Below, piece by piece: positions 1,769-16,986 of a stretch of DNA of 20,000 nt. The notes beneath the pieces were generated by a model. It ran no database searches. It saw only the letters and a list, made by a program, of their open reading frames with translations, and was not told where the DNA came from. Location: IMG/VR virus record IMGVR_UViG_3300011242_000004; one strand, 5' to 3'. This stretch comes from an uncultured virus (IMG/VR IMGVR_UViG_3300011242_000004) (Duplodnaviria > Heunggongvirae > Uroviricota > Caudoviricetes). A program made the position numbers and the translations under genes. The first letter of the stretch is position 1. The number at the start of each line of letters is the position of its first letter.

Positions 1769-2506
1769 CCTTTCTTTTTCCTGACCTTTTTAGCACGCTA
1801 CGGTCTAGGGTTACCATTCATTTATGAATCGAATTTTTACAGGATTATTTTCCTGACATTTGTGCTTATTACGGTCTGATGCGTAAGCATAGAGAAGTTC
1901 TGCCTGAAATGTAACCATTTATGCGTCAAATCTCAAGAGAAAGTGCTGAAGACGGCAAAAAGACGAAGCTCCGGGTTAGATATCTCCGGCTTCGCCTACT
2001 ACTAGGTTAATGAAGTTCTAGTACTTCTCTCTCTATAGAGGTATCTCCCTATAGACTCTTTATACTCTCTACTCCTATTAGATAAGGGATAGGAGGGCTA
2101 ACGCCCCACATACAAAGAGTATGTTCCCGCCGCCAACTGGTTTTTCTATAGGGACTCTGTACTAATCAGGTCTTTCTCTCTGTCTCTCTTACTCTCTTAA
2201 TAAGTATTACTTGAAGATGTCGGTGATTAAGATAAAACAGGTGACGCCGCCGACACTTCCCATTCCAATTAACATGATTTTAAACAAGGTGATGTCTTTG
2301 AGTCTCTCTTTCAAGGGAACTCACTCCTTTAATAAGTAAAGGACGGCTCCATGGATACAGAAGAACCCTATCCAAAGGAATACCGCCCGCCACTTCGATA
2401 TTTTCGCGGGATTTTCCTCTAAGACGTAAATAGACGTCTCTTGATAGAGATAAAATACACTACATATCAGAAATACACCATACCACTCATACATTGTCAT
2501 CGAATC

Positions 2507-2794
2507 TTAAGCACTTACAACTTTTTGTGGTTCTTTTTGGGCTTTTTCGCGGGTATACCGCATTCTCTTAAATTGAATGTAATAGATAAAGGCAGAATGC
2601 TCTTTTTTCCATCCGACAATCTCAATATCAAAGAACTCATAGTGGGTTCCCTCATAATTAAAGAATAAATCTTCTAAATCTCCGATTAACCCGCCGACAT
2701 CAATCCGGTGCATGTACAATAACACCCCATTCGAGCTATCTGGGTTCTTTTGATACCGGACATCGAACGCTTCATCTAATAATGCATTAATCAT
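2507..2794 (-). CDS. Hypothetical protein (95 aa; start revised to ATG 2794)
   Basis: ATG 2794 overlaps the TGA of the upstream gene (ATGA). The extra 47 codons in the track overlap that gene. Confidence 0.7.
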   Translation of the reverse strand: MINALLDEAFDVRYQKNPDSSNGVLLYMHRIDVGGLIGDLEDLFFNYEGTHYEFFDIEIVGWKKEHSAFIYYIQFKRMRYTREKAQKEPQKVVSA

Positions 2795-2982
2795 TTGATA
2801 CCACCCATCTCTCTTGCCCGTAGCGTGCGTTCTAAGGCGTCTGCACACGTATGACAGAGTCTTACTATCTGTTTGTCTTCTTCCATTACGTAGGTGGCAT
2901 AACGGCTTCTGAGCGCCGCGTTGCATGACGCACATTGACGTCCCTCAATCACAGAAAAATGAAGCTGAATCGAATCCTTCAT
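2791..2982 (-). CDS. Small zinc-finger protein (CxxC...CxxC)
   Basis: 63 aa with CASC and CHTC motifs; GGAGAGGAG RBS upstream. Confidence 0.75.
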   Translation of the reverse strand: MKDSIQLHFSVIEGRQCASCNAALRSRYATYVMEEDKQIVRLCHTCADALERTLRAREMGGIK

Positions 2983-3418
2983 GACTTCGGTCTCCTCTCC
3001 TATCCTGTTGTCTCAATCCTCTAGTTGTCTTGCCTTTATCCTATCATCTCCTATCAATAAATACCATATTTTACTTCCTAACTTGTGTCTTATCACTCTT
3101 ATTTTTTAATTAAATTTTATTTTGAGAATGTGTGTTTGTGTTTTAAAGGGGAGGGGTCTTTATTTCCGCCCACCCCCCTTAGAATGTGGGATTTTATCGC
3201 GCTCTTAGCGGGTGGAGGTGGAAACTGGGAGAGATGGAGGAGAAAAGATAGCAAGCCCGAACACTTTGTCATCGGCACGGAGCAAGAGTCGAGAAAAAGG
3301 TTACATATGGTGGAATTGACAAAAAATTCTCAGCGGCATGGTAAGTGTATATGGATAAAGTGGACATCTTTCGGCGCCCACCCCCATCTACGAATATTAT
3401 CAGGAGGTGTTCATTATT

Positions 3419-3991
3419 ATGAACGAATTACAAGATGCAATCTATGACTCATTACAGGGTCATAAGGAAGACATGGTAGAGCTCTTACACTTAGAGCTAC
3501 CTGTACGTCTTCAAGTCTGGTTTGGAGAGGAATCAGGCGGTTATTTAGCATTACATCCTCTTACTACACAGGGGTTATACATTGCCCCTACTGTAGATAC
3601 ACCAATCCATACAGTATGTGTACGTATGGACAGCGATATCGTACAAGTCATTGATTCATTGGCGCATGAGATGCGTCACGCATGGCAGTATGAGAACGCA
3701 TGTAATGAGGAGCTAGTACGCAATAAGCTACATGCATTCATGGTGCGTGTAGTAGCTAAGGTAGTTAAAGATATTGCTACCTTGCAGTATGCCAATGCAT
3801 GGGAAGAAGTAGATGCCCGTGTATTCGCATCATGGTACGTAGGTGGTGAGGATACACCTTGTCCTACTGTACCTATGTTAGAGGATATGCGTGTACGCTA
3901 CCCATCTCTATCTGATGGTGAGCTACGTATGATGCGGCGCCGTGCTGGTAATGATTATGCACAGCATGGGCCTAATAGCATCATTTCATGA
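3419..3991 (+). CDS. Zincin-like (HExxH) metallopeptidase-domain protein
   Basis: AGGAGGT RBS at 3402-3408 then ATG 3419; motif LAHEMRHAWQY followed by WEEVDARVFA (candidate third-ligand Glu). Confidence 0.75.
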   Translation: MNELQDAIYDSLQGHKEDMVELLHLELPVRLQVWFGEESGGYLALHPLTTQGLYIAPTVDTPIHTVCVRMDSDIVQVIDSLAHEMRHAWQYENACNEELVRNKLHAFMVRVVAKVVKDIATLQYANAWEEVDARVFASWYVGGEDTPCPTVPMLEDMRVRYPSLSDGELRMMRRRAGNDYAQHGPNSIIS

Positions 3992-4253
3992 GAACACCCA
4001 CCTATTACTATGTGGGAGCAATAGGGCACATATAGTGCATGAGCTACAGAGGGGAGTAGTTGTTGTGTCAGATTTATTTAAACAGGTAGGTGTGTATACG
4101 TATGTGTACACAGGTAGTAATAACGTTGAGCTTGAGCTAGGTATTATCGAGCTCTTTAAGCAACAGTATCCTGATATGGGATATGCACTATACGATGTAA
4201 TGGTAGATGGTGAGGAGATTATCCTTATTGTCTTCCCTACATCTGAGTATTAA
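3942..4253 (+). CDS. Hypothetical protein (start uncertain)
   Basis: About 100-aa ORF with the same compositional bias as the preceding gene; no clear RBS. Confidence 0.55.
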   Translation: MLVMIMHSMGLIASFHENTHLLLCGSNRAHIVHELQRGVVVVSDLFKQVGVYTYVYTGSNNVELELGIIELFKQQYPDMGYALYDVMVDGEEIILIVFPTSEY

Positions 4254-4260
4254 CTAGTAT

Positions 4261-4420
4261 CCCTGTATAGGTAGGCCCTCATATGGAGGGGTGCCTATAT
4301 GGGGTGCTGTATATGGGTGCCTCTATATAGGGGTGCCTATAGCAAGGCCTCTATATAAGGCCCTCTATATAAGGGGGTCTATATAGGGGGTACTATATAA
4401 GGCCCCTCTATAGAAGGGGC
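4261..4420. repeat. Tandem array of about 11 degenerate quasi-palindromic 14-bp units (approx. CCTCTATATAAGGG)
   Basis: TATA cores start at 4266, 4280 (CATA), 4296, 4310, 4324, 4338, 4352, 4366, 4380, 4394 and 4409; eight consecutive cores are exactly 14 bp apart. Confidence 0.9.
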
Positions 4421-4468
4421 ATCCAATAAGCCGGAGAAACCGGATGCGGACGAAAGGGGTAATTCCTC

Positions 4469-5080
4469 ATGACAAACTCAACTAAAACAATCCTATCTAC
4501 TACTGCTGTATTCGCAACACCTGCACAAAAACGTGCAGTCGAAGAAAAACAAATCGTAACACCGGTCGAATTTGGGCCAGCTGTAAAATTCCCTTTATAC
4601 GCATTCACAGTAGAAGGGAAAGCAACTCGTGGCGCACAAGTCTTCAATAAACACCATCACTTCTGCCACGTCGGATTAGAAGATTTCAAAGCTGTTCTTC
4701 AAAAATACCGTATCAATAATGCGGTACTTGCACGGATGTTGAATGGCGTCGGCAAAACAACGGCTCGCGAAGGATATGTTTACGTATCCTATGACCAACA
4801 AATCGGATTGCCGAATCCGTATAAAAAAGCGGCGCCGTACCGTAAGGCTTGCCAAGATTACTTGAACGGTTTGCCGCTTTCGACTGTTGTTGTTTCAAGC
4901 AATAAATTGGTGCTGGAATTGGCGTCAAGACGTGGACATCGTGTTCTGCATCGCGACGTCAATTTCGCACGTGTTCATGACATCGAACACACTTGTATCT
5001 ACCGTGGTCGCAACCACAACGCAATGCCTGCTGTTATGTCTCTCTTCTTTGGTTCTAAAGTGAATCTACTTGTTTATTGA
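4469..5080 (+). CDS. Hypothetical basic protein (203 aa) upstream of the RNA polymerase
   Basis: AAAGGGGT RBS; codon usage like the downstream polymerase gene. Confidence 0.85.
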   Translation: MTNSTKTILSTTAVFATPAQKRAVEEKQIVTPVEFGPAVKFPLYAFTVEGKATRGAQVFNKHHHFCHVGLEDFKAVLQKYRINNAVLARMLNGVGKTTAREGYVYVSYDQQIGLPNPYKKAAPYRKACQDYLNGLPLSTVVVSSNKLVLELASRRGHRVLHRDVNFARVHDIEHTCIYRGRNHNAMPAVMSLFFGSKVNLLVY

Positions 5081-5179
5081 AAAACATTTTCTAAGTTCTA
5101 AAAAACTTTCGGTCTTGGCGAGGACCTTAAACTACGACATCGTGGGCGCACTTACGCAAATTGAAAGGGGTAATTAATC

Positions 5180-7975
5180 ATGACAAACGCTAAAAACAAC
5201 AACAACGGAAAACAAAACAAAAAGGGGATGAAACCTATGAAAGCATTAACAATCACTGAACTCGTCAAACAACGTAAAACTATCGTCAAGCACCAAGGTC
5301 CAAAGAAACCATCGTTCAACTTGTCAGCAACAAAATCAGTTTTCGGATTCACACACCCGATGACTGGCGCATTAACAATCTTGAATGACAAAACGCTTCA
5401 GCACTTGTTTGTCAGCGATGACATGAACAATACAAAGTTTAATCCTGCTGTCCGTTTGTTCATGGTGACGGAAGGTTCTACAAAAGTAGAAGATTTCATG
5501 GTCAATGAGAAAACATTGGTTCAGCGTAACTCTGAATCGATGCTTGTACGGGATGCCGCTAAAGTCACAACAGAATTCGACATTATCAAGAAAGACCCGC
5601 TCAACCGTAAACAGATGTTGACGGAGAAGCTTGAGGCCTTTGACAATACACGTCAGCTCAACCTTAAGGTTGCAGATGTCGTTGTCAAACTCAAGAAGTT
5701 ATTTGAATCAAAAGAAGTCAAAGCACGTTTTGGTAATATCGATGCAAAAGACATCAATCATTTCATCAAAGAAGTACTCTTGAATGGTGTCGTGAATCTT
5801 GACTTCGTGAATGGCGATTACGATGTCAAAGTATTCACATTGAATTCAGCGGCACCATCGCAAACTCGTAAGGGTGAAGCGGCTTTCTGGCAGTATGCGG
5901 AACAACGTGGTCTTGCCAACCTCAAGGATTTAATCTTTGATGACGCAAAACGTTCAATCGCTGTTTACGGTCGTTTTGTTTCAACCTACCGTATGAACGA
6001 ATACGGTAAACTCAAATTGAAGCGCGGTAAACGCATCTTCAAGATGGACAAAGAGCCAAAACGTTTGGACATGCCCGCATCAGGTTCGCGGGATTCACAG
6101 GCTTTCAAGTTCCTGTTCGGTAAAATGGTCATCGTCGACCGTTTCCTTTACACGGATGACGAGAAAGAAGCTGGTACTAATATCAAAGTCGTTAAAGAAG
6201 CGATTGTATTAGAATCTTCTTCTTTGATGATGGGTGGCGTCAAACGTCGGGTTCTTATCATTCAAGACCCGATTCGTGAAGTTGAAGCAACGGCGAAAGT
6301 CGTTGAGAAGTACAACACGGAGTCAGGTAAGCCTGAAATCGTGGAAGGGCTTTACAAGTTCCCTAAGAACTTGGTCGATGGTGGTATCTTGGTTTCTGAG
6401 GAAGTGACAGAGTTTATGGTCGCTGAAGGAAACTTGAAGCACAAAGGGCAGTCATTCCAAGGTCGTGGTGTAGCGGGTGTTAAACCATTCGCTTATGGCA
6501 CACCAATGCTTAAAGAGATGACTGGTGTAGACATGGTCTTCATGTCAGGTGCATTAAAACTCGATGTTATCCCATCATTGCTTGATGGTCGCTTCGAGTT
6601 TGCAGTCGTTCAAGGGTCACGTCTTGAGTTTGCTGAAGACATGGCACCGGTAGCAACACAGGCTTTACTTGCGGCTGGTACACCGCAAGAGAACCTTGAA
6701 TTGCTTCACATGATTGCGGCAGGTCGTATCGATGCTTCTATGTACTCAGCGTCAAAAGCTCTCAAGATTCTTGGCATCACAGAGAACTTTGACGAGGAGA
6801 CAATGAAAGTTGTCGAACAAGATGAAGAGTTCGTCGAAGAGTTAGATGGCGAAACAGGTGTGAAAGCGATTCTTCGTAAAGCACCTCACGCTATCAAAGA
6901 TGGTCTTCTCAAAGACCGTCTTATCAACATCATGGCAAAAGCCCTTGAGAAAATCAAGTTGGGCAATGTCCTTGTTGATGACGCTAAAATGCGTCACATG
7001 GGCTTTGACATCTTTATGGTTGTCAAAGCTATCGAATCATTATTTGTTCAACGCAATAAAGGCGTTGAAGTGCCACAGATGGAATGGGTGAACTCTATCC
7101 CAGCTGGTGGTGCAGTTGTTGTTGACGCTTACGGTCGTCTTCGTGCAGGATACTTCCTTGCGATTCGTTACCCAGCATTGAAGAACGAAGAAGTACGCAA
7201 AGTACTAGCGGCTGTTGAGTTTGGTTCAGAAGAAGCACGTCTTTACTACGAACGTGCGGCACAAATGGGCTTCTTCCAAGGCCTTGTGTTGTTTAACTCT
7301 GTTGACATGACGACAGAGGCAATGAGTGGTGCCGATTTTGATGGCGACACTTGCTTGGTTATCTTCAATGCTTTAATGGTTGAACCGTTTGTAAACAAAA
7401 CACCACTTCTCGATTTCTTTATCACTGAGACTGGTGCGCTCGAAGGTGGATGCCCATGGTCTGCACCGGAGGAAGCTGTTGATTTTAAAGCTCACATCAC
7501 AGCACCTGAGGGTCTTGAATTCACGCAAGTGATGGAAAACAACTCTCGTACGTGGGCACTTGAGTTCGACGAAGAAGACGTCAAAAACCGTCCAGCAGAC
7601 GTTTACTATGTCTTCAACCGTGCAGGAGCATTGCACATCGCTGAGACAGCGAAGATTTCTTCAATCGGAACATGGACAAACCGTCTTATGAACGTTGAAG
7701 ATATCCAACTCGAAATCATCGGTGAAATCGGACTTGCACGTCAGCTTCAAGACCGTGCGAAATTCGTTTCTCTTTCGAACGAGTTGGCGTTCTACGATGA
7801 TTTAGCAATGTGGTTAACATGTATCGTTCGTTGGGCAATCGACGAAGCGAAACATGGTGGAGCGTTCAACGGACCACTTGCTCATATCGTCAACATCTTC
7901 GAAGATGCAACATCTCCAACGAAGATGCGTGAAGACCTTGAGAAACATGTCTTCAAAATGGGTCGTATGTTCTAA
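5180..7975 (+). CDS. YonO-like / eukaryotic-RdRP-related two-barrel RNA polymerase, catalytic polypeptide (931 aa)
   Basis: Motifs in the order expected for the cellular RdRP/YonO family: DGGILVS (aa ~400), QGRGVAGVKP (~427), RYP (~663), catalytic SGADFDGD (DFDGD at nt 7334-7348, aa ~719), AIDEAKHG (~886). AAAGGGGT RBS. Confidence 0.88.
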   Translation: MTNAKNNNNGKQNKKGMKPMKALTITELVKQRKTIVKHQGPKKPSFNLSATKSVFGFTHPMTGALTILNDKTLQHLFVSDDMNNTKFNPAVRLFMVTEGSTKVEDFMVNEKTLVQRNSESMLVRDAAKVTTEFDIIKKDPLNRKQMLTEKLEAFDNTRQLNLKVADVVVKLKKLFESKEVKARFGNIDAKDINHFIKEVLLNGVVNLDFVNGDYDVKVFTLNSAAPSQTRKGEAAFWQYAEQRGLANLKDLIFDDAKRSIAVYGRFVSTYRMNEYGKLKLKRGKRIFKMDKEPKRLDMPASGSRDSQAFKFLFGKMVIVDRFLYTDDEKEAGTNIKVVKEAIVLESSSLMMGGVKRRVLIIQDPIREVEATAKVVEKYNTESGKPEIVEGLYKFPKNLVDGGILVSEEVTEFMVAEGNLKHKGQSFQGRGVAGVKPFAYGTPMLKEMTGVDMVFMSGALKLDVIPSLLDGRFEFAVVQGSRLEFAEDMAPVATQALLAAGTPQENLELLHMIAAGRIDASMYSASKALKILGITENFDEETMKVVEQDEEFVEELDGETGVKAILRKAPHAIKDGLLKDRLINIMAKALEKIKLGNVLVDDAKMRHMGFDIFMVVKAIESLFVQRNKGVEVPQMEWVNSIPAGGAVVVDAYGRLRAGYFLAIRYPALKNEEVRKVLAAVEFGSEEARLYYERAAQMGFFQGLVLFNSVDMTTEAMSGADFDGDTCLVIFNALMVEPFVNKTPLLDFFITETGALEGGCPWSAPEEAVDFKAHITAPEGLEFTQVMENNSRTWALEFDEEDVKNRPADVYYVFNRAGALHIAETAKISSIGTWTNRLMNVEDIQLEIIGEIGLARQLQDRAKFVSLSNELAFYDDLAMWLTCIVRWAIDEAKHGGAFNGPLAHIVNIFEDATSPTKMREDLEKHVFKMGRMF

Positions 7976-8000
7976 GAATTAAATCGTAACAGCGAATGTT

Positions 8001-8025
8001 GAGGGGTGAGATGCCCTCTTTTTTT
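8001..8025 (+). terminator. Putative intrinsic terminator
   Basis: GAGGG-N8-CCCTC hairpin followed by T7. Confidence 0.6.
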
Positions 8026-8100
8026 ATGGATTGTTTTACTGCCAATAGGACGGAAAATACCGTATGAGGCCCTGCACATGCAGGAGAATAGGGGAAAATC

Positions 8101-10071
8101 ATGTCTAACACTACTAACACTGCTATCTACAACGTCGCTACAGAAGCTGAAATCGCAAATTCTGTCGGCTTGCCAGAAATGTCAATGGAAGAAGCACGCT
8201 CATTGGCAATCAACGTCTTAAACAGCTCAATGGTGTTGGTTTCATCACAGGAAGCACGTAAGTTTGTCATGGCAGATAAAGAATCTGCACTTAAGCAAGT
8301 AGTTCTTCTCACGCAACAAAAGCTTCGTCTCAAATTCGGACCAAAGATGGACTTCTTCCACGGCGAAGTGGAAAAGGATATTGAATGGTTCCGTGCAACA
8401 GCTGACGAGTTGATTGCAAAAGGTGAGTTGCGTCTCATTCAAGATGTTGATTCTGACATCTTCATGTGGACTGAGAAAGCCCACAAGTTCACGTTCCAAA
8501 TCTTCAAAGGGAAACGTTTCCGTACGTCTCAGTTGATTGTCAAACTTCAGAATGAAGTCACTTTCCGTGATGTTCACAATGAAGCACTTGCTCGTGCAGA
8601 AGCACATGAGACACAGTACAAAAGCAATAAAATGCCGTTGCAACGTCCGGCTTATATTGCGGCTCAAAAAGGAGAAGAAGGTGTTCGTGTTGCACATCGT
8701 CATTCTTCAGTGCAATTGGCAACAGACTTCGCTGGTTTCATTCTTGAAGAGTTGAAAGTCAAGAAAGCAAGTCTTAAACGTTCAATGAACATGTTGAATG
8801 ATTTCATTGCTTTGAAAGACCGTTTTGAAATCTCTGACGATGAGCGTGCACGCTTGTCAGCAGAAGCTAGCACGTTGCTTTCTACTGCTAAAGTAGGGCT
8901 TGATGAAATTCAGTTGGAACGTGACAGCTATAATGAACGTGCACAAATCTTCATGGGTATGAAAACTGTCCATGATACGCATGACTTCAAAGTATTTGTG
9001 GCCAACGAGAAAGCGGCTGGTCGCAAAGTCAACATGGACAAAGCAAAACAACACTTTGCTCTTCCAGTTGGGAAAGTGCTTTGGAAACAAGCGACAGAGG
9101 GGATGCGCAACTCTGCTCGTCGTAAAGCGATGACAACGGCTGAGCTTGACCGTCTTGCTGAGATGAATCTATCTTATACGCAAGAAATGAAAGCACAGAC
9201 GCTTCAAACTGCTCAGAAACTTGAGAAAGAGTTGAAGATGTCAAATGCAACGATGAAATTGGCTATCATTGCCTATATCGATGCATACAACGCTGATAAA
9301 GAAGGTTTGGGCGGTCTCGCTTCAATGTGGGATACGTTCGAAGAAGGATTGTTGATGGCATTGGACGCAATGGCTACTCAAGGCCCTCTCGTTGAGTACA
9401 AACCATCTTCAGCAGAATTGTCGTTCTTCTTTGAACCTGCCATGAACGATATTACGACTATTGAGAAAGCGCATGCTGAATTAACAGCAATGAAAGTTCT
9501 CAACAAAGACGTTAATATCGTTACTGTTGATGGCGAAGTCGGCCTTCAACTTGATGCTGGTTTCTTCCCACTTGAAAAGCAAGAAAAGAAACTCAAGTGG
9601 TTGCCAGCAGGTCGTGACTATGTAGCAAAAGTAACACGCTACAAAAACACGGTCAAAACAGGGATTGCGATGGGGCTCTCAGATATCCGTGCCATCAATG
9701 TGCCTGAAGAAGAAGTGCAAGAAGCAGTCGTCGACCAAGTTGTCGATGGTTACACTGCTGATGCGGATTACGATTGGGCGCAAGAGCCAGCGCCTGATTA
9801 TATCGATGGTCTTTTCTTCGATAACTACGAAGAAGAAACTGTTGAAGCACCACAGCCTGTTGTTCTTGCTCCAACGGAAATCATCGTTGCGACGTTAGAA
9901 CGTAATACTGTTGAAGCTGTTCTTTCTCAACAGTATGAAATGGCAGTATCACCGCTTGGTACGCAAGTCTTCATGCTTCATAACGGACAGCGTATCTTGT
10001 CGTTCACGACGGATGTTCAATTGTCTTCGCTTGACGGTATGCGTCACGATGGCACGAACTTCGTCATCTGA
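8101..10071 (+). CDS. Large protein (656 aa), probable second (C-terminal) subunit of the split RNA polymerase
   Basis: AGGGG RBS. RPAYIAAQKG...HSSVQL (~182), AIIAYIDAY (~388) and SMWDTFEEGLL (~408) resemble the C-terminal motifs of RdRP/YonO enzymes. Acidic C-terminal linker. CDS is certain; function is inferred. Confidence 0.6.
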   Translation: MSNTTNTAIYNVATEAEIANSVGLPEMSMEEARSLAINVLNSSMVLVSSQEARKFVMADKESALKQVVLLTQQKLRLKFGPKMDFFHGEVEKDIEWFRATADELIAKGELRLIQDVDSDIFMWTEKAHKFTFQIFKGKRFRTSQLIVKLQNEVTFRDVHNEALARAEAHETQYKSNKMPLQRPAYIAAQKGEEGVRVAHRHSSVQLATDFAGFILEELKVKKASLKRSMNMLNDFIALKDRFEISDDERARLSAEASTLLSTAKVGLDEIQLERDSYNERAQIFMGMKTVHDTHDFKVFVANEKAAGRKVNMDKAKQHFALPVGKVLWKQATEGMRNSARRKAMTTAELDRLAEMNLSYTQEMKAQTLQTAQKLEKELKMSNATMKLAIIAYIDAYNADKEGLGGLASMWDTFEEGLLMALDAMATQGPLVEYKPSSAELSFFFEPAMNDITTIEKAHAELTAMKVLNKDVNIVTVDGEVGLQLDAGFFPLEKQEKKLKWLPAGRDYVAKVTRYKNTVKTGIAMGLSDIRAINVPEEEVQEAVVDQVVDGYTADADYDWAQEPAPDYIDGLFFDNYEEETVEAPQPVVLAPTEIIVATLERNTVEAVLSQQYEMAVSPLGTQVFMLHNGQRILSFTTDVQLSSLDGMRHDGTNFVI

Positions 10072-10077
10072 TTTAGG

Positions 10078-10106
10078 AAGGCCCTCTTCGGAGGGTCTTT
10101 TGTTTT
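10078..10106 (+). terminator. Intrinsic terminator
   Basis: AAGGCCCTC-TTCG-GAGGGTCTT followed by TTGTTTT. Confidence 0.8.
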
Positions 10107-10149
10107 GTTGTCTGTCACTCAATCCACATACAAAAAGGAGATTATTAAA

Positions 10150-11295
10150 ATGAAAATCCAAAACAAAGTAGCTCGTTATATCAACAACGTCAATGCAACT
10201 AACACTTCAGTCCAAATCAACAAAATGGTGAAGGCCATTGCATTGGCAGAGCGTGAGTTGGAACAAGCACGTCAAATGTTTGCCGATTTCACGGCACCAA
10301 CTCCACCGGCTCCAAAGAAATCCATTGTTCATTCTTCTAAAGGAACAATGACAACACAGTCTGAAGTTCATGCGCTTCTCATGGACACAGATAAAACAGT
10401 TGTAGCCGTTAAAGAAGCAGTCAAAGAAGAACCTGTGTACAAAGGTTTGGATTTGACACCGGCTCCAGCTACTCCTGAACCAACGGAGTACAAAGGCTTA
10501 GATTTATCCGCTCCAACTCCTGAGCCTGAGTATAAAGGACTTGATTTAACACCGGCTCCTAAACCAGCACCATTGGCGAAGGAAGTCCGGGAGAACATGG
10601 CAAAACCAGCACCAAAACCTGTACAACAGCCAGTCAATTCGAAGGCTGGTTTCTTGTCAGGCCCTGCTGAGTCTTCCAACGTGTTGAACAGTGCTATGCC
10701 AAGTCATAAGCACGACACGCTTAAATACGTCGAGAAGCTGAAGAAGTTTATCTTCTCTGGCATCATGAAACTTGCAGAAGCAGGGATTCGTGAGATTCGT
10801 GTCGCTGAGTTCTATGGCGTCGAATTGTTGACAGCGCTCGTCTGGCCTAGCGTGCTTGCGAAGTGTCCAGACATGGAGCTCATTCTCTATACAAATGAGA
10901 ATAAGAGCTTCAAGCAATACAAGACGGAAGAGTACGAGGCGACGTTCAAGATTCATTCGCCATACCGTCTGCAACAAGACTTGCGTCGACTGGCTAATAA
11001 AGTCGTTAAAGTCGAAGGCAATGCCTTTGCAGTACGCCGTGCTGTAGCAAAAGATACAGCCGGTTATGTGCGTATCTCTCCATTTGGTTTGGAGGATATC
11101 ACGACATCGTTATTCAGCAACAAGACGCTACGGGTGAACATTTGCCCATGGACGCTTGCTGTTGAAGTCGGTGGTGATTTACCTGCCCTCTCTCTTGCGG
11201 GAGATGGTGGGGATTACCGTCCACGCCAAATGGTAGCGGACGAAAAGTTGTTAGCGGCGGACACGTCAGACTATAAGGGCCTGACTCTTTCATAA
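10150..11295 (+). CDS. Hypothetical protein (381 aa) with Pro-rich linker and repeated YKGLDL motifs
   Basis: AAAGGAG RBS before ATG 10150; YKGLDL three times plus terminal YKGLTLS. Confidence 0.85.
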   Translation: MKIQNKVARYINNVNATNTSVQINKMVKAIALAERELEQARQMFADFTAPTPPAPKKSIVHSSKGTMTTQSEVHALLMDTDKTVVAVKEAVKEEPVYKGLDLTPAPATPEPTEYKGLDLSAPTPEPEYKGLDLTPAPKPAPLAKEVRENMAKPAPKPVQQPVNSKAGFLSGPAESSNVLNSAMPSHKHDTLKYVEKLKKFIFSGIMKLAEAGIREIRVAEFYGVELLTALVWPSVLAKCPDMELILYTNENKSFKQYKTEEYEATFKIHSPYRLQQDLRRLANKVVKVEGNAFAVRRAVAKDTAGYVRISPFGLEDITTSLFSNKTLRVNICPWTLAVEVGGDLPALSLAGDGGDYRPRQMVADEKLLAADTSDYKGLTLS

Positions 11296-11358
11296 GAGCC
11301 GGGCTTTTGCTTAACGTTGGCTATCAGGCCTTCGGCTAGGGGTTTTAACCCCTTACAA

Positions 11359-11380
11359 CCGGAGGCTTCCAGCCTTCTCT
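11359..11380 (+). promoter_or_regulatory. Degenerate copy of the hairpin motif, embedded in a longer stem-loop (11319-11374)
   Basis: CCGGAGGCTTCCAGCCTTCTCT; lacks the TGATT element. Confidence 0.4.
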
Positions 11381-11409
11381 TGCGGTATCACTACTAGAAA
11401 GGAGTGACG

Positions 11410-11646
11410 ATGATGTCACGAGAATTTATTGTTTCTTTGTTACGCTTAGTATTACCGTACCCATTACACTGGTACGAAAGTAAGTCCTTGCACCAATTGA
11501 ACGGAATCTACACGGAATACCGGGGAGCCATTTCCCGGAAACGTGTACAGTTGGCATTTGAAGCCGATGACCGCCGTTTAAAAGAAAAACTGAAGAAAAC
11601 ACCATTCGTTCCTCCGAAAGAGGACAATGGGTTGCCCTTCTTTTAG
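11410..11646 (+). CDS. Small hypothetical protein (78 aa) ending EDNGLPFF
   Basis: AAAGGAG RBS, ATG 11410. Confidence 0.8.
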   Translation: MMSREFIVSLLRLVLPYPLHWYESKSLHQLNGIYTEYRGAISRKRVQLAFEADDRRLKEKLKKTPFVPPKEDNGLPFF

Positions 11647-11666
11647 GGCAAGTTCAAAAACAAAGG

Positions 11667-11696
11667 GCGGAGGACTCCGTCCTTCTTTTGTTGATT
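11667..11696 (+). promoter_or_regulatory. Repeated hairpin motif copy 1 (putative phage RNAP promoter/terminator)
   Basis: GCGGAGGACTCCGTCCTTCTTTTGTTGATT; TGATT starts 25 nt after the first G. Confidence 0.7.
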
Positions 11697-12060
11697 CAAT
11701 GAGGGGAACTTGATTCCAACCAACAGCTCAACTGGTCCTTCGGGATAGAGCCTTCACACCTCATTGAATTGCACCAACATGCAGGTGAAGGTTCTCGCTT
11801 TCCCCCTACTGTCCAGTGGGGGGTTGCGTCATGAGAGCGGTGAACACTTCCGTCTTTGGACATATCCAGCGCTACCCTGATGGGTTCTGGAGAAAAGACG
11901 GTCGTATTACTTCCTACTTGGTAGGAGCACGACATCAGGTCTCCTTTTTGTCCTACCGGATAGGGGATTCGTATTCTATGCGTCGCACAGGGGTGTGCAA
12001 AGTCATAGATAGTAGGTGTTATGTAGCGCGGAGGCTTACCCAACCTCCGGCACATAGCAA
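11694..12060 (+). ncRNA. Putative ~370-nt structured non-coding RNA, family not recognised
   Basis: Perfect 11-bp stem 11694-11704/11759-11769 is crossed by an 11-bp stem 11747-11757/11785-11795 (pseudoknot). Also a cUUCGg hairpin and at least six further consecutive stems. No RBS-supported ORF. Confidence 0.7.
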
Positions 12061-12075
12061 ATACATAGTTAGAAG

Positions 12076-12106
12076 GCGGAGGCCTCCGGGCCTTCTTCTC
12101 TTGATT
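12076..12106 (+). promoter_or_regulatory. Repeated hairpin motif copy 2
   Basis: GCGGAGGCCTCCGGGCCTTCTTCTCTTGATT (spacing 26). Confidence 0.7.
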
Positions 12107-12132
12107 CTATTACATGCAAAGGGGAGATTGAC

Positions 12133-12411
12133 ATGAAAGAAATGAAACTCACGCAATTGGACGAAAGTAAAGCACGTAAGCTTTTACCTGAAGAAATAGC
12201 GGAACTCGATAACGCTGTTGAGAATCATCAAACGATATCGGAACTCAAAGTCATGCATTCGAATGCTGGGTATTATCTAGGGCATACGATTGACCAAGAA
12301 ATTGATGGTCAAGTATTTGAAATGCCTTGGGACCGCGTGACCGACTACTATAAAACGAAAGAAAAAGCGGAGCAAGCGCTTCGGTTCGAACAACTGCATC
12401 AACAAGACTAA
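12133..12411 (+). CDS. Hypothetical phage protein (92 aa)
   Basis: AAAGGGGAG RBS; motif SNAGYYLG...PWDRVTDYY. Confidence 0.85.
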   Translation: MKEMKLTQLDESKARKLLPEEIAELDNAVENHQTISELKVMHSNAGYYLGHTIDQEIDGQVFEMPWDRVTDYYKTKEKAEQALRFEQLHQQD

Positions 12412-12413
12412 AA

Positions 12414-12444
12414 GCGGAGGGCTCCGGCCCTTCTTTCTTTGATT
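12414..12444 (+). promoter_or_regulatory. Repeated hairpin motif copy 3
   Basis: GCGGAGGGCTCCGGCCCTTCTTTCTTTGATT (spacing 26). Confidence 0.7.
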
Positions 12445-12473
12445 ACAACTTTATATGAAAAGGAGCGATTCAC

Positions 12474-12803
12474 ATGTATGAACAAATTGAACGGGAAGTC
12501 GAAATGGACAAATTCTTCCGTCGGGGGAAATACTCAACGAACGTTAACCCGGCGACTGGTGAATTCATCGAGCAACCAGTACTTTCAGCGGATAAGCCTC
12601 ACCGCTGTCATGTCATCAAACGGCTATGCCCGAAAATGACGATGAACACGGATATGGCTACCATCACGCAAGATGTGAAGTTGGCTTATCAAGGAAAACA
12701 GTTTTGGCATACGATTGAACTTGAGACATGTAAACGGGAAGATGTTGCTCGTGTGTATCAACAACATGCTCAACGTTGGCGCCTAGAGGAGGAAAGCAAA
12801 TGA
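12474..12803 (+). CDS. Hypothetical protein (109 aa)
   Basis: AAAGGAG RBS. Confidence 0.8.
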   Translation: MYEQIEREVEMDKFFRRGKYSTNVNPATGEFIEQPVLSADKPHRCHVIKRLCPKMTMNTDMATITQDVKLAYQGKQFWHTIELETCKREDVARVYQQHAQRWRLEEESK

Positions 12804-12979
12804 ACGACCAATTGCTTTTCTTCATGATGGCATCCATGTATCTCGTCTTTTGTGCGTACGTTGTTGGTATCGCGTATATCGCGCGGTACCTTCTGCTTCG
12901 TAATCATTTCAAGTTAGCCTTCTCTAGTTTCTTCGTCGGTGTCGGCGGTCTTATCTTCGTTTTAAATACATTATTCTAA
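12800..12979 (+). CDS. Small membrane protein (59 aa, two hydrophobic segments)
   Basis: GGAGG RBS; ATGA overlap with the previous stop. Confidence 0.75.
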   Translation: MNDQLLFFMMASMYLVFCAYVVGIAYIARYLLLRNHFKLAFSSFFVGVGGLIFVLNTLF

Positions 12980-12990
12980 GGGAGCGATTC

Positions 12991-13179
12991 ATGATGAAAA
13001 AGGTTGGTAAAGTATTACTTAAAGGTGCGATTCTCTATACGTTTGCGATGTATGTCGCCGCCATTAACATCGTCGCTGAAAAACGGAAGACCGACGCTCA
13101 GATTGATAAGCTCACGAAACAATACGAAGCAAGCCAAGCTGGTTTTAAAAAGACACTTAAACAATTGGGGGCTATCTAA
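12991..13179 (+). CDS. Small membrane-anchored protein (62 aa)
   Basis: AAGGGAG RBS; N-terminal hydrophobic helix. Confidence 0.75.
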   Translation: MMKKVGKVLLKGAILYTFAMYVAAINIVAEKRKTDAQIDKLTKQYEASQAGFKKTLKQLGAI

Positions 13180-13454
13180 TGAAATACTTTGATATGCATT
13201 ATAGTATTATTGTAGACCGTCCGCTCGTTGCTGTTTTGCTTAAAAATGGTCAGCGCGGGGTATTCGTTAATAACAATATCTCGTGCATTAACGACTTCGA
13301 TTTCGAGAAGCGTGTCCTCAGCCGTCGTTCGATTGCCGGGAACGTCGATACACGCTACAAGTCTCTTGATGAGGCCGTCGCGGAATATAATGAATCATGT
13401 ATTGAAAGCAAACGTATCATTTCATTCGATATCCTAGAGGAGGCAACAGCATGA
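13179..13454 (+). CDS. Hypothetical protein (91 aa)
   Basis: TAATG coupling with the previous gene; GGGGG RBS. Confidence 0.75.
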   Translation: MKYFDMHYSIIVDRPLVAVLLKNGQRGVFVNNNISCINDFDFEKRVLSRRSIAGNVDTRYKSLDEAVAEYNESCIESKRIISFDILEEATA

Positions 13455-13738
13455 ACACTATCATCCAACCTACTACTACGATTAAACCTCTCCGTCATGA
13501 AGATACGACGGAGACACGCAACTATATCAACATCTATAAAGATGGTGTCCTCTATGAGGGCATCACCGCGATTCGTCAAACGTCTTTTGATAATAATGGA
13601 CATCGTCTTTATGAAGTCTCAGTTGACCCGGAGAAAAAGGTCTTTTACAAACTTCCGTATAGCTTCGATATTCCCTATGAGTTCGAAGGCAAGGACTTAA
13701 ACATGATGATTACGCACGCACGGTTTAAACAACACTGA
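13451..13738 (+). CDS. Hypothetical protein (95 aa)
   Basis: GAGGAGG RBS; ATGA overlap. Confidence 0.8.
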   Translation: MNTIIQPTTTIKPLRHEDTTETRNYINIYKDGVLYEGITAIRQTSFDNNGHRLYEVSVDPEKKVFYKLPYSFDIPYEFEGKDLNMMITHARFKQH

Positions 13739-13762
13739 GGGCCTTCGGGCTCTCTTTTTTTT
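13737..13762 (+). terminator. Intrinsic terminator
   Basis: GAGGGCC-TTCG-GGCTCTC followed by T8. Confidence 0.8.
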
Positions 13763-13813
13763 ATGGACACACATCTCCAGTGGGAACACACATTCAGAAG
13801 GGAGACATATCCA

Positions 13814-14014
13814 ATGTCTACAGTCAGTCTTATTGCCAACCTCATTATTTTTCTCTCCACCCTCTACACCTTATTCTTTTATATTCGTGCCCGTCGGGTT
13901 GTATCAACACATGGAGAAACAGATGCGCGCGTTCGCACTCTCCGTGAAACCAAGAACTACTTCATGATTTGTATCTCTTATTCTGTATTAGTCATTGTGC
14001 TTCAGTTCTTTTAA
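13814..14014 (+). CDS. Small membrane protein (66 aa)
   Basis: AAGGGAG RBS before ATG 13814; two hydrophobic segments. Confidence 0.7.
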   Translation: MSTVSLIANLIIFLSTLYTLFFYIRARRVVSTHGETDARVRTLRETKNYFMICISYSVLVIVLQFF

Positions 14015-14024
14015 AAGATAAAAG

Positions 14025-14054
14025 GCGGAGGCCTCCGGCCCTCTTTTCATGATT
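14025..14054 (+). promoter_or_regulatory. Repeated hairpin motif copy 4
   Basis: GCGGAGGCCTCCGGCCCTCTTTTCATGATT (spacing 25). Confidence 0.7.
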
Positions 14055-14098
14055 CTCAGCGTCTGTAGCCATTCACCTTATAGAAAGGAAGATTATCC

Positions 14099-14404
14099 AT
14101 GGAAGAACAAATCTACGCCTATCAGCACATCCTTAGACACACATCCAAGTTCGATGAAATCACTGTCGGGTTAGCCTCTGTCGTCAACGGACTCGTCAAT
14201 GACCTCATTGCCAAGAATCAGGACTTCATTCGTATGAACAGTGAACAGCGGTTGTATTCAGCTATTGCCAAAGCTCGTATCTTAGAAATGCAATTGGCAT
14301 ACACGATTGATTACAGTCATACGCCGTTGCTTCCAGAGATTCTTCCGCTCGACCCTATCAAGGTCAATGCGCTACAGGAAGAATACGAAGCCCAGTTCCA
14401 ATAA
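14099..14404 (+). CDS. Hypothetical protein (101 aa)
   Basis: AAAGGAAG RBS. Confidence 0.8.
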   Translation: MEEQIYAYQHILRHTSKFDEITVGLASVVNGLVNDLIAKNQDFIRMNSEQRLYSAIAKARILEMQLAYTIDYSHTPLLPEILPLDPIKVNALQEEYEAQFQ

Positions 14405-14445
14405 GAGCCTTCCGGCTCTTACATACCTTAAAGGAGGAGATACTA

Positions 14446-14844
14446 ATGAATGCTTCAAACCGTCTGTTTCATTTAGCACAAGATGCTCTCACCAAACAAA
14501 AAGTCAGCGAGAGAGCCTACTCGATTGCACAAGACTTCATCAAACAAGCAGAGTGGTATGCAAGTAGAGGAGATGACAGTACCGCCTTTATTTGTGACGA
14601 AGAACAGAACTTCAGTGGCTCTCTAACTGAAATTAAAGAGTTGTTGTCTGAAGTCCGAAAAGTTCTTTCCAACGAAGGATTCAAGACGACTTCCTACATG
14701 CACCCTTCTATTATGCAACCGGTCTTGCGAATACATTGGGCGCAACCGAAAGAAAACAGTACATTCGTTATACATGCGGAAACTAAAGATGGAGTAGAAG
14801 CCATCCACCATATGCTTAAGTTTTTACCTGAACTAATCAACTAA
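14446..14844 (+). CDS. Hypothetical protein (132 aa), paralog of the next gene
   Basis: AGGAGG RBS; shares LAQ(D/E)A and L(R/H)I(H/N)WA.P motifs with 14861..15220. Confidence 0.85.
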   Translation: MNASNRLFHLAQDALTKQKVSERAYSIAQDFIKQAEWYASRGDDSTAFICDEEQNFSGSLTEIKELLSEVRKVLSNEGFKTTSYMHPSIMQPVLRIHWAQPKENSTFVIHAETKDGVEAIHHMLKFLPELIN

Positions 14845-14860
14845 ACAGGAGGAGATACTA

Positions 14861-15220
14861 ATGAAAAACGCACAGATGATGTACAAACTCGCGCAGGAAG
14901 CGAAAGCAGAAGAAAAACGGGCAGAGGTCATCAACGCCATCACATTCAAAATCGGTGATATCATCCAAAGCCACGCGAAGAAAGGATTCACGGACATCCG
15001 CATCTCCACAGACAACATGGGCTTTAACCACGACTTCATGTTGAACATGAACAACGTCCACGAACTCATGGCTCATATCAGACAGTTCGGATACGAGGTC
15101 CGTCTTCTGTTGATGGCAGACACCAACGAAATGATTCTTCACATCAACTGGGCTCCGAACCCATTCGAAGAAATGCGTAGAAACTTCGGCAATCCACTTG
15201 ACCTAGACCCTCATTATTAA
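14861..15220 (+). CDS. Hypothetical protein (119 aa), paralog of the previous gene
   Basis: AGGAGG RBS; identical 19-nt initiation region to the previous gene. Confidence 0.85.
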   Translation: MKNAQMMYKLAQEAKAEEKRAEVINAITFKIGDIIQSHAKKGFTDIRISTDNMGFNHDFMLNMNNVHELMAHIRQFGYEVRLLLMADTNEMILHINWAPNPFEEMRRNFGNPLDLDPHY

Positions 15221-15229
15221 AACCGAAGA

Positions 15230-15259
15230 GCGGAGGGCTCCGCCCCTCTTCTCTTGATT
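15230..15259 (+). promoter_or_regulatory. Repeated hairpin motif copy 5
   Basis: GCGGAGGGCTCCGCCCCTCTTCTCTTGATT (spacing 25). Confidence 0.7.
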
Positions 15260-15277
15260 ATGAAAGGAGTGATAGCT

Positions 15278-15778
15278 TTGAAAATTGGTGTCATCGGCAT
15301 GCGTATGCGGAAACACCATCCGTACTATAACCGCAACAGTCCGAAGCTTGATGAAATTTGGAAGTGGCAGGAACAGCACTTGAAAGTCTTAGCGAAAGAA
15401 GGGCATACCTTCTTAATCGGGTGTGCCGACCATTGGGACGCCCGTGCCATGAAATGGTTGTACTACAACGGTCACGCCGACCAGATTCAATTGATTCTTC
15501 CGTTCCCGGGCTTTGGCTCGAAACAAGGGAAGGATTGGCGCACCGTCCGGGAACAACTCGAACACAGAGGACAAGCCACGTATGTCCATCAACAAAGTAC
15601 GTCCGATGAATATCAAATGCTCAACCAACGCAATCGTACCCTTATCAAGGAAAGCGATTGGGTGCTATGGCTATGGGACGGCACACAGACCGACGCCTAT
15701 AGTCATTTAATCTTGAACAAGAAACCGGGCTACTTCTTCCCATGGAAGGAATACGCCCAAAGCCATCAAACGGTTTAA
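15278..15778 (+). CDS. SLOG-superfamily protein (YspA/DUF1273-like)
   Basis: AAAGGAG RBS, TTG start. KIGVIGMR, GCADHWDARA, LILPFPG and RNRTLIKESDWVLWLWDG follow the DUF1273/YspA motif order. Confidence 0.7.
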   Translation: MKIGVIGMRMRKHHPYYNRNSPKLDEIWKWQEQHLKVLAKEGHTFLIGCADHWDARAMKWLYYNGHADQIQLILPFPGFGSKQGKDWRTVREQLEHRGQATYVHQQSTSDEYQMLNQRNRTLIKESDWVLWLWDGTQTDAYSHLILNKKPGYFFPWKEYAQSHQTV

Positions 15779-15828
15779 GCTTACTCATCGTCCATAACTC
15801 AATCATATACTAAAAGGAGACTACTACT

Positions 15829-16197
15829 ATGACTACATCTATTAAACACTTTAACTTCGAGGATACTATGACAATTGAAGGGCAAGGCGTCGTCATCGGC
15901 GCAACCCCTGCTGTCCTCTCTAAAATCAAGGAGTTCGGTCTAAGCGTCTATGAAATCGTAGCGGACTTACAACTCACTGCACCGGAAGCGTTCGACCTTC
16001 CGAACATGACGAACTATGCGGTTATGAATCCGTTCATGGATACGTGCATCCTCGCTAAAGTCTATAGCGACGGCGACAACATCTGCATTGACGCCTTCGA
16101 TGTACGGAACCATATCCCATACGGAAACGTTCGCAATGACGGCACGCAAGGGTATCGCTTAGGCGCTATCCAGAAAGTCTTCACTGTGGTGCAATGA
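15829..16197 (+). CDS. Hypothetical protein (122 aa)
   Basis: AAAGGAG RBS. Confidence 0.85.
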   Translation: MTTSIKHFNFEDTMTIEGQGVVIGATPAVLSKIKEFGLSVYEIVADLQLTAPEAFDLPNMTNYAVMNPFMDTCILAKVYSDGDNICIDAFDVRNHIPYGNVRNDGTQGYRLGAIQKVFTVVQ

Positions 16198-16301
16198 TGA
16201 AACGTAGACATCCGCATTACCACGATATCATGGAAGATATCAGTATCGCCGTCGGCTTATTGTCGATGGCATACTTTACCTTATCGTTCGCATTCCATTA
16301 A
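16194..16301 (+). CDS. Putative 35-aa hydrophobic peptide (not in the ORF track)
   Basis: ATGA overlap with the previous stop; MMKRRHPHYHDIMEDISIAVGLLSMAYFTLSFAFH; fills the gap up to the next motif. Confidence 0.5.
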   Translation: MMKRRHPHYHDIMEDISIAVGLLSMAYFTLSFAFH

Positions 16302-16311
16302 AAACCAAAAA

Positions 16312-16336
16312 GCGGAGGGCTCCGCCCCTCTTCTTA
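16312..16336 (+). promoter_or_regulatory. Repeated hairpin motif copy 6 (no TGATT)
   Basis: GCGGAGGGCTCCGCCCCTCTTCTTA. Confidence 0.6.
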
Positions 16337-16373
16337 TAGGGCTTACTACTTGAATTCAGAGAGGAAGATATCC

Positions 16374-16934: not shown

Positions 16935-16986
16935 GGTTTGCGGGGAGTCTAAGCCCGCTCCCCTTACATATAAGGAGGCCATCCCC

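Follow-up and report, generated by a model that had tools for sequence, protein, structure and literature searches.

Enzymes of the RNA-dependent RNA polymerase (RdRP)/YonO type are described as single-chain relatives of the multisubunit RNA polymerases (RNAPs) and possibly as models of the ancestral form (PMC5467207, PMC10770324 and PMC7824862; published work is cited here by PMC number). Can such an enzyme be made as two polypeptides? The locus that raises this question lies in an uncultured virus of the Caudoviricetes (IMG/VR record IMGVR_UViG_3300011242_000004), of which one stretch of 20,000 nucleotides, called the window below, was analyzed computationally. Two consecutive open reading frames (ORFs) on its + strand, ORF1 and ORF2, had been proposed in an earlier note, made from the sequence alone, to encode a single RNA polymerase split into two chains. 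We conclude, with a probability of about 0.75, that the pair arose by evolved fission of a single-chain RdRP/YonO phage polymerase and that the two chains most likely form one two-subunit enzyme. The genes and the elements beside them are as follows:

5180..7975, + strand: ORF1 (P0001), the catalytic subunit, 931 aa; a two-barrel RNA polymerase of the RdRP/YonO type
8001..8027, + strand: predicted terminator-like hairpin with a run of seven T in the ORF1-ORF2 spacer (terminator scan)
8035..8100, + strand: conserved ORF2 leader, with two small hairpins and a ribosome-binding site (RBS)
8101..10071, + strand: ORF2 (P0002), the probable second subunit, 656 aa, directly after ORF1
10076..10101, + strand: predicted terminator-like hairpin downstream of ORF2 (terminator scan)

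The catalytic chain

ORF1 is a two-barrel RNA polymerase of the RdRP/YonO type. Its alignment with 12 homologues (A1; 13 sequences, the homologues 44-98% identical to it) gave a profile that retrieved, from 1.84 billion representatives, 91 proteins at E <= 1e-3, 70 at E <= 1e-10 and 32 at E <= 1e-30. One single-chain relative, P0020 (1244 aa), matches A1 with an hhalign probability of 95.9% and itself matches ORF099 (gp99) of Bacillus phage 0305phi8-36 at E 1e-14; the latter is a 1218-aa protein annotated as a hypothetical DNA-directed RNA polymerase similar to Pfam05183. The gathering cut-off of that Pfam RdRP family (PF05183) was exceeded by seven of the 13 A1-profile relatives that were scanned (P0020, 83.4 bits; P0089, 51.6; P0097, 50.2; P0070, 43.9; P0032, 41.0; P0026, 38.4; P0110, 37.1), while three fell under it and three had no match. 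ORF1 itself has no PHROG match and no PDB sequence match, tblastn of ORF1, ORF2 and P0097 against 50,697 phage records gave no match, and none of the Pfam families of the beta or beta-prime subunits matches ORF1 or ORF2 at E <= 1.

A structural model of ORF1 built with AlphaFold2 (AF2) points to the same family. When the PDB was searched with it by Foldseek, the first 10 matches listed were all chains of QDE-1, followed by RDR2; the QDE-1 matches have E-values of 7.4e-4 to 1e-2, probabilities of 0.96-1.00 and template-modeling (TM) scores of 0.23-0.28, these scores being low because the model is poor. The model has the overall fold of QDE-1 and RDR2 (two double-psi beta-barrels, a slab/N-terminal domain and a bridge helix), and the VIA rows of the comparison end at its residue 825, opposite QDE-1 residue 1078, and at its residue 929, opposite QDE-1 residue 1161, with RDR2 also matched. 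Four motifs of the catalytic center can be placed in ORF1:

7166..7174, + strand: R663-Y664-P665, putative match of the R-x-P "Pro-gate" loop of QDE-1, invariant in 13/13 A1 sequences (assigned by motif and spacing)
7334..7348, + strand: D719-F-D-G-D723, metal-binding aspartate triad of the second barrel, invariant in 13/13
7658..7693, + strand: bridge-helix-like motif S827 ... I829-G830 ... N834 ... N838, invariant (assigned by spacing and the low-confidence model)
7835..7858, + strand: AIDEAKHG, putative trigger-loop motif I887-D888-x-x-K891, invariant in 13/13 (assigned by motif and spacing)

T833 is likewise invariant in A1 (S827/I829-G830/T833-N834/N838), and the aspartate motif (DFDGD within MSGADFDGDTC) lies inside the stretch of ORF1 that aligns to Pfam RdRP (residues 659-738), where it is aligned with the same motif of P0020. 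In QDE-1 the R-x-P gate loop is formed by residues 962-964, the bridge-helix residues are L1082, G1083, M1084, N1087 and R1091, and the trigger-loop subdomain spans 1102-1136, of which V1115, D1116 and K1119 contact the incoming nucleoside triphosphate (PMC9508822). By motif and spacing AIDEAKHG contains the counterparts of the last three residues, in agreement with the earlier equation of this string with the RdRP motif. The form xIDxxKHG is found in 87 of the 90 relatives classed below, and the remaining three have xIDGAKTG (two) or xIDxxKNG (one).

The gate loop, triad, bridge-helix and trigger-loop motifs thus all fall in ORF1, and with them the whole recognized catalytic center. Judged from the motifs and the model, ORF1 appears to retain the N-terminal domain and both double-psi beta-barrels as well, and would be the catalytic core of the enzyme, ending 38 residues after the trigger-loop motif. 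The claim that the chain stops about 40 aa past AIDEAKHG is therefore accurate (the motif occupies residues 886-893, and 38 aa are left), and the end is not peculiar to the window: all 13 A1 proteins share a C-terminus ...RMF/RLF that lies 38-43 aa past the motif. Motif spacing and the low-confidence model place the end of ORF1 roughly 25 residues past the equivalent of the QDE-1 trigger-loop subdomain. The further claim that both barrels remain in one chain also stands, with the refinement that the bridge-helix-like and trigger-loop motifs stay in ORF1 too and that the detached part is the region after the trigger loop. A cut between the bridge helix and the trigger loop was considered and dropped, as the QDE-1 residue numbers put the trigger-loop motif in ORF1.

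Additions at the N-terminus were seen in some of these proteins. P0020 carries a Rho_N (SAP-like) domain at residues 8-39 (Pfam PF07498, 28.9 bits, above cut-off; gene at L003 8381-12115), and three members of the ORF1 family (P0006, P0007 and P0013) carry an additional basic stretch of 100-170 aa at the N-terminus, which is predicted to be helical.

ORF2 and the region after the trigger loop

How far do other polymerases of this kind continue beyond the trigger-loop motif? We measured the chain length after x-x-D-x-x-K-x-G in 102 polymerase-type proteins, 90 of which could be classed (among the other 12 the motif is absent in 10 and wrongly placed in two). The tail lengths are bimodal: 40 of the 90 proteins end 36-98 aa past the motif (38 of them at 36-59 aa, and P0025 and P0078 at 77 and 98 aa), and 50 run on for 318-572 aa. 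By similarity the 50 long tails form four groups, g1-g4, with 32, 13, 3 and 2 members, respectively.

The homologues of ORF2 are five in number (40-96% identity), and together with ORF2 itself and two locus-derived sequences they make up the 8-row alignment A2. On the strength of profile-profile comparison, ORF2 residues 173-537 are homologous to the post-trigger-loop region of the single-chain relatives. Using hhalign, A2 matched the 32 g1 tails with a probability of 94.3% (E 9.6e-8; ORF2 173-463 on tail columns 36-281) and an alignment of 27 full-length single-chain g1 proteins (A6) with a probability of 92.5% (E 4.9e-7 over 291 columns; ORF2 173-537 on P0097 856-1175, its C-terminal end). 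Control alignments made by reversing A2 or by shuffling its columns (10 times) reached probabilities of at most 0.2% and E-values of at least 0.29 against g1, and on this difference the proposal that ORF2 represents the RdRP/YonO C-terminal region is upheld. When a hidden Markov model (HMM) of the g1 tails was run against the 119 stop-to-stop frames of at least 60 aa in the window, ORF2 ranked first (E 1.6e-5, two collinear stretches); ORF1 ranked second, solely through the KHG motif left at the starts of the tails. The junction between the two chains is seamless, A1 covering g1 tail columns 2-31 and A2 beginning at column 36.

The matching columns include the strings on which the split had originally been suspected, and all three occur in ORF2 in the order then given (RPAYIAAQKG...HSSVQL at 182-207, AIIAYIDAY at 388-396 and SMWDTFEEGLL at 408-418). 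In the A2 and tail profiles they appear as K-M-P-x-x-R-P-x-(Y/F)-I-A-x-Q-K followed by S-S-V-Q, paired with k-P-x-W-L-A-x-x-K and S-V-L-S; as A-x-x-x-Y-I-x-x-Y, paired with I-G-Y-V-A-Y-x-x-T-Y; and as W-D-T-F, paired with F-P-W. The tails in turn reach known enzymes: the A6 profile matches maize RDR2 at E 4.2e-5 in three collinear stretches (in the best, profile 979-1084 lies on RDR2 1000-1107 of 1131, A-W-Y-H-V-T-Y ... S-F-P-W, with an independent E of 0.27), and the g1-tail HMM matches residues 688-883 of 0305phi8-36 gp99 at E 3.4e-9. A2 against the single protein P0020 gave a weak match (probability 5%, E 0.008). The homologous part of ORF2 is flanked by two others, as follows:

8101..8616, + strand: ORF2 residues 1-172, lineage-specific N-terminal alpha/beta domain with no single-chain counterpart
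8617..9711, + strand: ORF2 residues 173-537, homologue of the single-chain C-terminal region by hhalign
9712..10068, + strand: ORF2 residues 538-656, lineage-specific acidic linker and small C-terminal beta domain

The estimate of about 180 extra N-terminal residues was close, the homologous part beginning at residue 173. Residues 538-656 have no match in the single-chain forms; the last 60 are conserved in A2, and strands run through 611-637. The AF2 model of ORF2, built from the 8-row alignment, is poor overall (predicted local distance difference test, pLDDT, 65.2; predicted TM score, pTM, 0.31) and uneven: the alpha/beta domain (30-150) has pLDDT 78-88, the first tail-homologous segment (152-230), which would abut ORF1, is below 50, the helical region (230-400) is about 80, the beta-rich domain (440-530) is mostly 72-85 (52 at 491-500), the acidic stretch (534-583) is below 50 and the small beta domain (590-656) is about 59-75. 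ORF2 has no Pfam, PHROG or PDB match, and the A2 profile found nothing among PDB sequences at E <= 10. With this poor model Foldseek found nothing in the PDB at E <= 1e-3, fold searches returned only generic helical matches, and the ESM Atlas offered no usable feature match for ORF2 (structural neighbors at TM <= 0.18). The comparisons suggested in the earlier note came out in part as it expected: the ORF1 fold led to QDE-1 and the ORF2 profile to the single-chain tails, and a fold match for the poor ORF2 model was not obtained. ORF2 also diverges faster than ORF1, at 42-45% versus 62-64% identity in the same relatives.

The DNA between the two genes has its own conserved features. The reading frames of ORF1 and ORF2 differ, the intergenic gap is 125 nt, and the ORF2 frame is closed by a stop codon 9 nt upstream of its ATG (the stop-to-stop frame begins at 8092), so that no single-base error can join ORF1 to ORF2. 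As had been noted, ORF2 has its own RBS, the purine-rich string AGGGG, placed 7-11 nt ahead of the ATG. The sequence of the 8001-8027 hairpin is near-identical in two related loci, L028 and L001; in a third, L002, the spacer hairpins miss the terminator-scan criteria on the + strand. Counterparts of the leader are found at about 5090-5136 in L028, 12780-12840 in L001 and 12860-12915 in L002. Its hairpin at 8050-8063 (4 bp, ACGG/CCGT) is paired in all four sequences and is kept through compensatory changes in L028 and L002, two of the four pairs being altered on both sides; the element occurs once in the window, and the second leader hairpin adjoins the ORF2 RBS. Conservation of the spacer DNA among the window, L028 and L001 is far above that of the flanking proteins. 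RNA folding of the spacer is not unusual (z = -1.0). The hairpin and conserved leader suggest that ORF2 levels are controlled independently of ORF1 levels, and the leader could serve as a promoter or operator or act in the control of translation.

Split and fused forms, and the competing explanations

If the two chains derive from one, are both states found among relatives? An alignment of 17 more distant short-type polymerases (A4) was used to scan a metagenome collection, which gave 10 loci (L020-L029). Six of these, from the sister clade, are split at the same place; the ten loci are arranged as follows:

L020, L021, L022, L023, L025 and L026, polymerase ORF: covers g2 tail-HMM positions 1-48 or 1-49
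L020-L023, L025 and L026, next ORF (417-485 aa): covers the g2 tail HMM from 51-95 up to 470-476
L024: fused, with A4 positions 162-885 and tail positions 1-474 in one open frame
L027: contig ends 37 nt past the polymerase stop, leaving no downstream DNA to judge
L028: from the window's own clade; a 930-aa polymerase and then a 644-aa A2-type ORF (E 9e-259)
L029: a remote 1048-aa form

The E-values of the tail ORFs in L020, L021, L022, L023, L025 and L026 are 2.2e-68, 1.3e-51, 3.0e-49, 1.0e-54, 3.4e-10 and 2.4e-22, respectively, that of L026 being cut by the contig end at g2 position 343. With the window, L001, L002, L028 and the six sister-clade loci taken together, a tail gene directly follows the polymerase gene in 10 of the 10 short-type loci with downstream DNA, and the order ORF1-ORF2-ORF3 is kept in L001, L002 and L028. 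The two-gene form of the RdRP/YonO-type polymerase is widespread among relatives. In the sister clade the homologous part of the tail gene is preceded by no more than about 5-70 residues, and therefore the N-terminal domain of about 170 residues in ORF2 is special to the window's clade. No split locus came out of a scan of viral contigs with A4, whose matches were all long or more remote forms, and among proteins of 1247-3560 aa no fused relative of ORF2 turned up at E <= 10, which is weak evidence.

Two observations on single loci may be added. L023 has an in-frame TAA at 1555-1557 within the polymerase gene (about A4 position 722-727) with the downstream tail gene intact, which could be a sequencing error, decay or read-through. 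In Enterocloster phage PMBT24 (L031, 3230-6440), a possible further split form, a 240-aa ORF overlaps the end of the gene for an 831-aa protein annotated as RNA-dependent RNA polymerase; the tail profiles gave no significant match to this ORF (best E 0.06).

A quick, unrooted maximum-likelihood tree was made from 93 head regions (520 aa up to KHG), 42 of the short and 51 of the long type; left out were 25 of 118 sequences (110 collected proteins and eight locus-derived frames), namely eight proteins of the ORF2 family and motif-less or short-headed ones. The window's clade (16 rows) is entirely short, the sister clade is mixed (25 rows short, 14 long), and the outer clades are long except for P0078. 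At least seven changes between short and long are required on this tree, whereas shuffled labels require 30.8 on average and none of 500 shuffles was as low. The direction of change is not given by such a tree; the fused state is probably ancestral, since the enzyme is one chain both in cellular RdRPs and in the outer phage groups. A single fission may have been followed by the adjacent genes re-fusing several times; alternatively, fission occurred more than once at this site.

We propose that the enzyme of the window came about and works as follows: ORF2 173-537 is the former post-trigger-loop region, which in QDE-1 and other structures forms part of the head/clamp gripping the template-product duplex, and it would complete that head/clamp here; the N-terminal domain of about 170 aa and the small C-terminal domain have been gained around it. 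The two proteins would assemble into a two-subunit DNA-dependent RNAP that transcribes part of the phage genome. Their assembly is suggested by the fusion of the pair in relatives together with the conserved adjacency, and a DNA template by likeness to YonO (PMC5467207).

Several results weigh against this proposal. ORF1 matches Pfam RdRP PF05183 at E 0.04 and 13 bits, below the gathering cut-off of 23.8; its model is of middling quality (pLDDT 63.4, pTM 0.47), and the active-site stretch 702-763 has pLDDT below 50. A2 is just 8 sequences deep and matches the other tail groups weakly (g2 E 0.025, g3 E 0.15, g4 E 0.008, all with probabilities of at most 5%; E 0.047 for g2 enlarged by five split-type tail genes), and therefore the homology of ORF2 to the tails depends on one bridging group (g1/A6). 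The tail groups are mutually weak when the shared KHG segment is removed (g1 versus enlarged g2, E 0.0027), and an A2 HMM run against the 110 collected proteins is marginal outside its own family, with many matches collinear with the tail and several not. Finally, the terminator-like hairpin between the genes speaks against simple co-translation in fixed amounts, and gp96 of phage P23-45 is reported to be an active polymerase in which the C-terminal region is absent (PMC10770324), so ORF1 might work alone.

This last thought leads to a different explanation, in which ORF1 by itself is the working polymerase and ORF2 is a tail-derived accessory, dispensable or conditional and in its own transcription unit, for example a promoter-specificity, processivity or regulatory factor that joins at certain times. 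Every recognized catalytic element is kept in ORF1, the example of gp96 (PMC10770324) fits, and so do the hairpin and conserved leader between the genes, the two lineage-specific domains that ORF2 has gained and its faster divergence (42-45% versus 62-64% identity). We nevertheless consider it unlikely: a tail gene adjoins the polymerase gene in all 10 informative short-type loci, fused forms recur in the same clade, which speaks for a permanent partnership, and the QDE-1 head domain, which takes in T854 and, from the C-terminal region, R1369, contacts the template (PMC9508822). It is very improbable that ORF2 is unrelated to the polymerase and that the motif strings occur by chance in a neighboring gene. 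The lack of Pfam, PHROG, PDB or Atlas matches, the generic helical matches of the model and the weak similarity to the g2-g4 tails would suit such a protein, but the probabilities of 92.5-94.3% over 225-291 columns against at most 0.2% for 11 controls, the collinear matches abutting the end of ORF1 and the unambiguous split and fused pairs at the same site in the sister clade would not. It is scarcely credible that the split reflects faulty sequencing or assembly, or that a single-chain gene has recently been pseudogenized by mutation. The in-frame TAA of L023 indicates that errors or decay do occur in such contigs, but the stop of ORF1 is kept in 13 of 13 family members on separate contigs, the frames differ and a stop lies 9 nt ahead of the ORF2 ATG, conservation extends to the 125-nt spacer and its hairpins and RBS, and about 170 ORF2 residues precede the homologous part. 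The earlier preference for an evolved fission over a frameshift is borne out by the same features: the stop is conserved, the two frames differ, the spacer is kept and ORF2 has an added N-terminal domain.

With fission into a two-subunit enzyme as the preferred reading, a bolder one can be put forward tentatively; we find it possible, though rather doubtful. The site after the trigger loop may be a natural module boundary of two-barrel polymerases that has been repeatedly cut and rejoined in phages, the window's clade having turned the detached part into a true second subunit, with added domains at both ends, a terminator-flanked transcription unit of its own and a structured, conserved leader. 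If this is true, the clade has a clamp/specificity subunit under separate control of dose or timing, and represents a minimal natural step from a single-subunit towards a multisubunit RNAP. A two-gene form also bears on the view of RdRP/YonO polymerases as single-chain models of an RNAP ancestor: their C-terminal head/clamp region would be a separable module, fission and fusion would have taken place several times at one site, and the pair would be a simple system for studying the contribution of the C-terminal region to processivity, template or product handling, or promoter choice. As the ORF1 family is missed by PHROGs and lies below the Pfam cut-off and the ORF2 family is unannotated, such phages would be annotated as if a polymerase subunit were absent.

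Genomic surroundings and known polymerases

The element resembles a phage: its relatives lie on viral contigs of 26-54 kb from IMG/VR, with one protein pair on a 237-kb contig. Pfam and PHROG matches are almost nil among the 28 other ORFs of the window, in which Rfam at its gathering thresholds found no family and no tRNA genes were found. ORF1 and ORF2 belong to a conserved block that begins with a 203-aa ORF (4469-5080; 53% identity in L001) and ends with ORF3 (10105-11295; 57% identity in L001 and 32% in L002 over the C-terminal half). ORF3 likely truly starts at 10150 and has no family match; the repeat E-P-x-Y-K-G-L-D-L is present in it three times, within a proline-rich linker. The 203-aa gene is immediately preceded by about 8-10 tandem 14-bp units (window 4265-4420, L001 8716-8870), each a TATATA followed by a G/C-rich half and partly palindromic, which could be iterons, operators or promoters. 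Upstream of the polymerase block, L001 (701-2431, - strand) and L002 (1418-3148, - strand) have a 576-aa ORF with intein splicing and LAGLIDADG domains, the ends of which weakly match PHROGs of the terminase large subunit; it has the look of a terminase gene interrupted by an intein.

Downstream of ORF3 (window 11346-18672), 9-10 intergenic elements stand between small + strand genes. Each is laid out as an A-rich run, a GC-rich hairpin (of the GCGGAGGC-loop-GCCTTC type, with a G-T pair), a T-rich run and TTGATT, and they may serve the phage's own transcription system as terminator/promoter cassettes. Terminator-like sites number 22 in 2000-12500, versus 8.3 expected. In several loci a gene of the YpsA/SLOG family lies no more than a few kb downstream of the RdRP/YonO-type polymerase gene, at the following positions:

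window, 15254-15778: YpsA/SLOG gene (Pfam PF06908 at E 7.7e-6, just under cut-off)
L001, 21714-22244: YpsA/SLOG gene
L003, 12466-13278: YpsA/SLOG gene
L030, 7341-7907: YpsA/SLOG gene

The version at the P0020 locus is a fusion of DUF488 and a YAcAr SLOG domain, and that of 0305phi8-36 is gp97.

How does the ORF1/ORF2 pair compare with polymerases already known? QDE-1 and RDR2 (2J7N, 7Y7P-T, 7W82, 7ROZ, 7EU0) are the best structural matches of the ORF1 model and have in common with it the R-x-P loop, the aspartate triad and the bridge-helix and V/I-D-x-x-K trigger-loop motifs; the A-(W/Y)-Y-x-x-T-Y ... F-P-W motif of RDR2 aligns with the single-chain tails and through them with ORF2 388-413. 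These enzymes differ from the pair in being single chains, eukaryotic, engaged in RNA silencing and active on RNA (and DNA) templates. Nearer in kind are YonO of the Bacillus prophage SPbeta, a processive DNA-dependent RNAP that transcribes late genes (PMC5467207), and gp99 of 0305phi8-36, which has been named YonO-like with both barrels in one subunit (PMC7824862). Like ORF1 they are phage two-barrel polymerases of the RdRP clade with DxDGD and x-D-x-x-K-(T/H)-G motifs (YonO being compared by its description), and the gp99 tail (688-883) matches the same tail profile as ORF2. Both are single chains, in contrast to the pair, whose post-trigger-loop region has a gene of its own, and the sequence similarity to gp99 is remote, its link to ORF1 running through P0020.

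The clamp of single-subunit two-barrel polymerases is composed of the barrel connector, the helix/loop after the second barrel and the C-terminal region (PMC10770324). The group of Thermus phage P23-45 gp64/gp96 and crAss-like phage phi14:2 gp66, of which gp64 and gp66 are DNA-dependent, has such a clamp, but gp96 lacks the C-terminal region altogether, which shows that the region is a separable module; that source does not report either phage's enzymes as divided between two genes. The P23-45 and phi14:2 enzymes are not among the listed fold matches of ORF1. A split enzyme of the RdRP/YonO type was not found described in the literature searched, the supplementary alignments of PMC10770324 (23 RNAP families) aside. 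Members of the RdRP/YonO family are single chains, and ORF1 is not, the homologue of its tail being ORF2 173-537; the pair is accordingly a split variant of the family and not a typical member.

Detached parts are known from other RNAPs. In archaeal RNAP, for example, the largest subunit is split into A' and A''. The nearest known architecture is that of the RNAP of the yeast cytoplasmic linear plasmids (virus-like elements, VLE), in which both barrels are in the large chain and the small subunit comprises C-terminal beta-prime regions, and whose two proteins, K2ORF6p and K2ORF7p, associate in vivo (PMC6211774). That enzyme, likened here by architecture and from its description, belongs to the multisubunit beta/beta-prime clade and not to the RdRP/YonO type, so the ORF1/ORF2 pair would be its analogue and not a member of its group.

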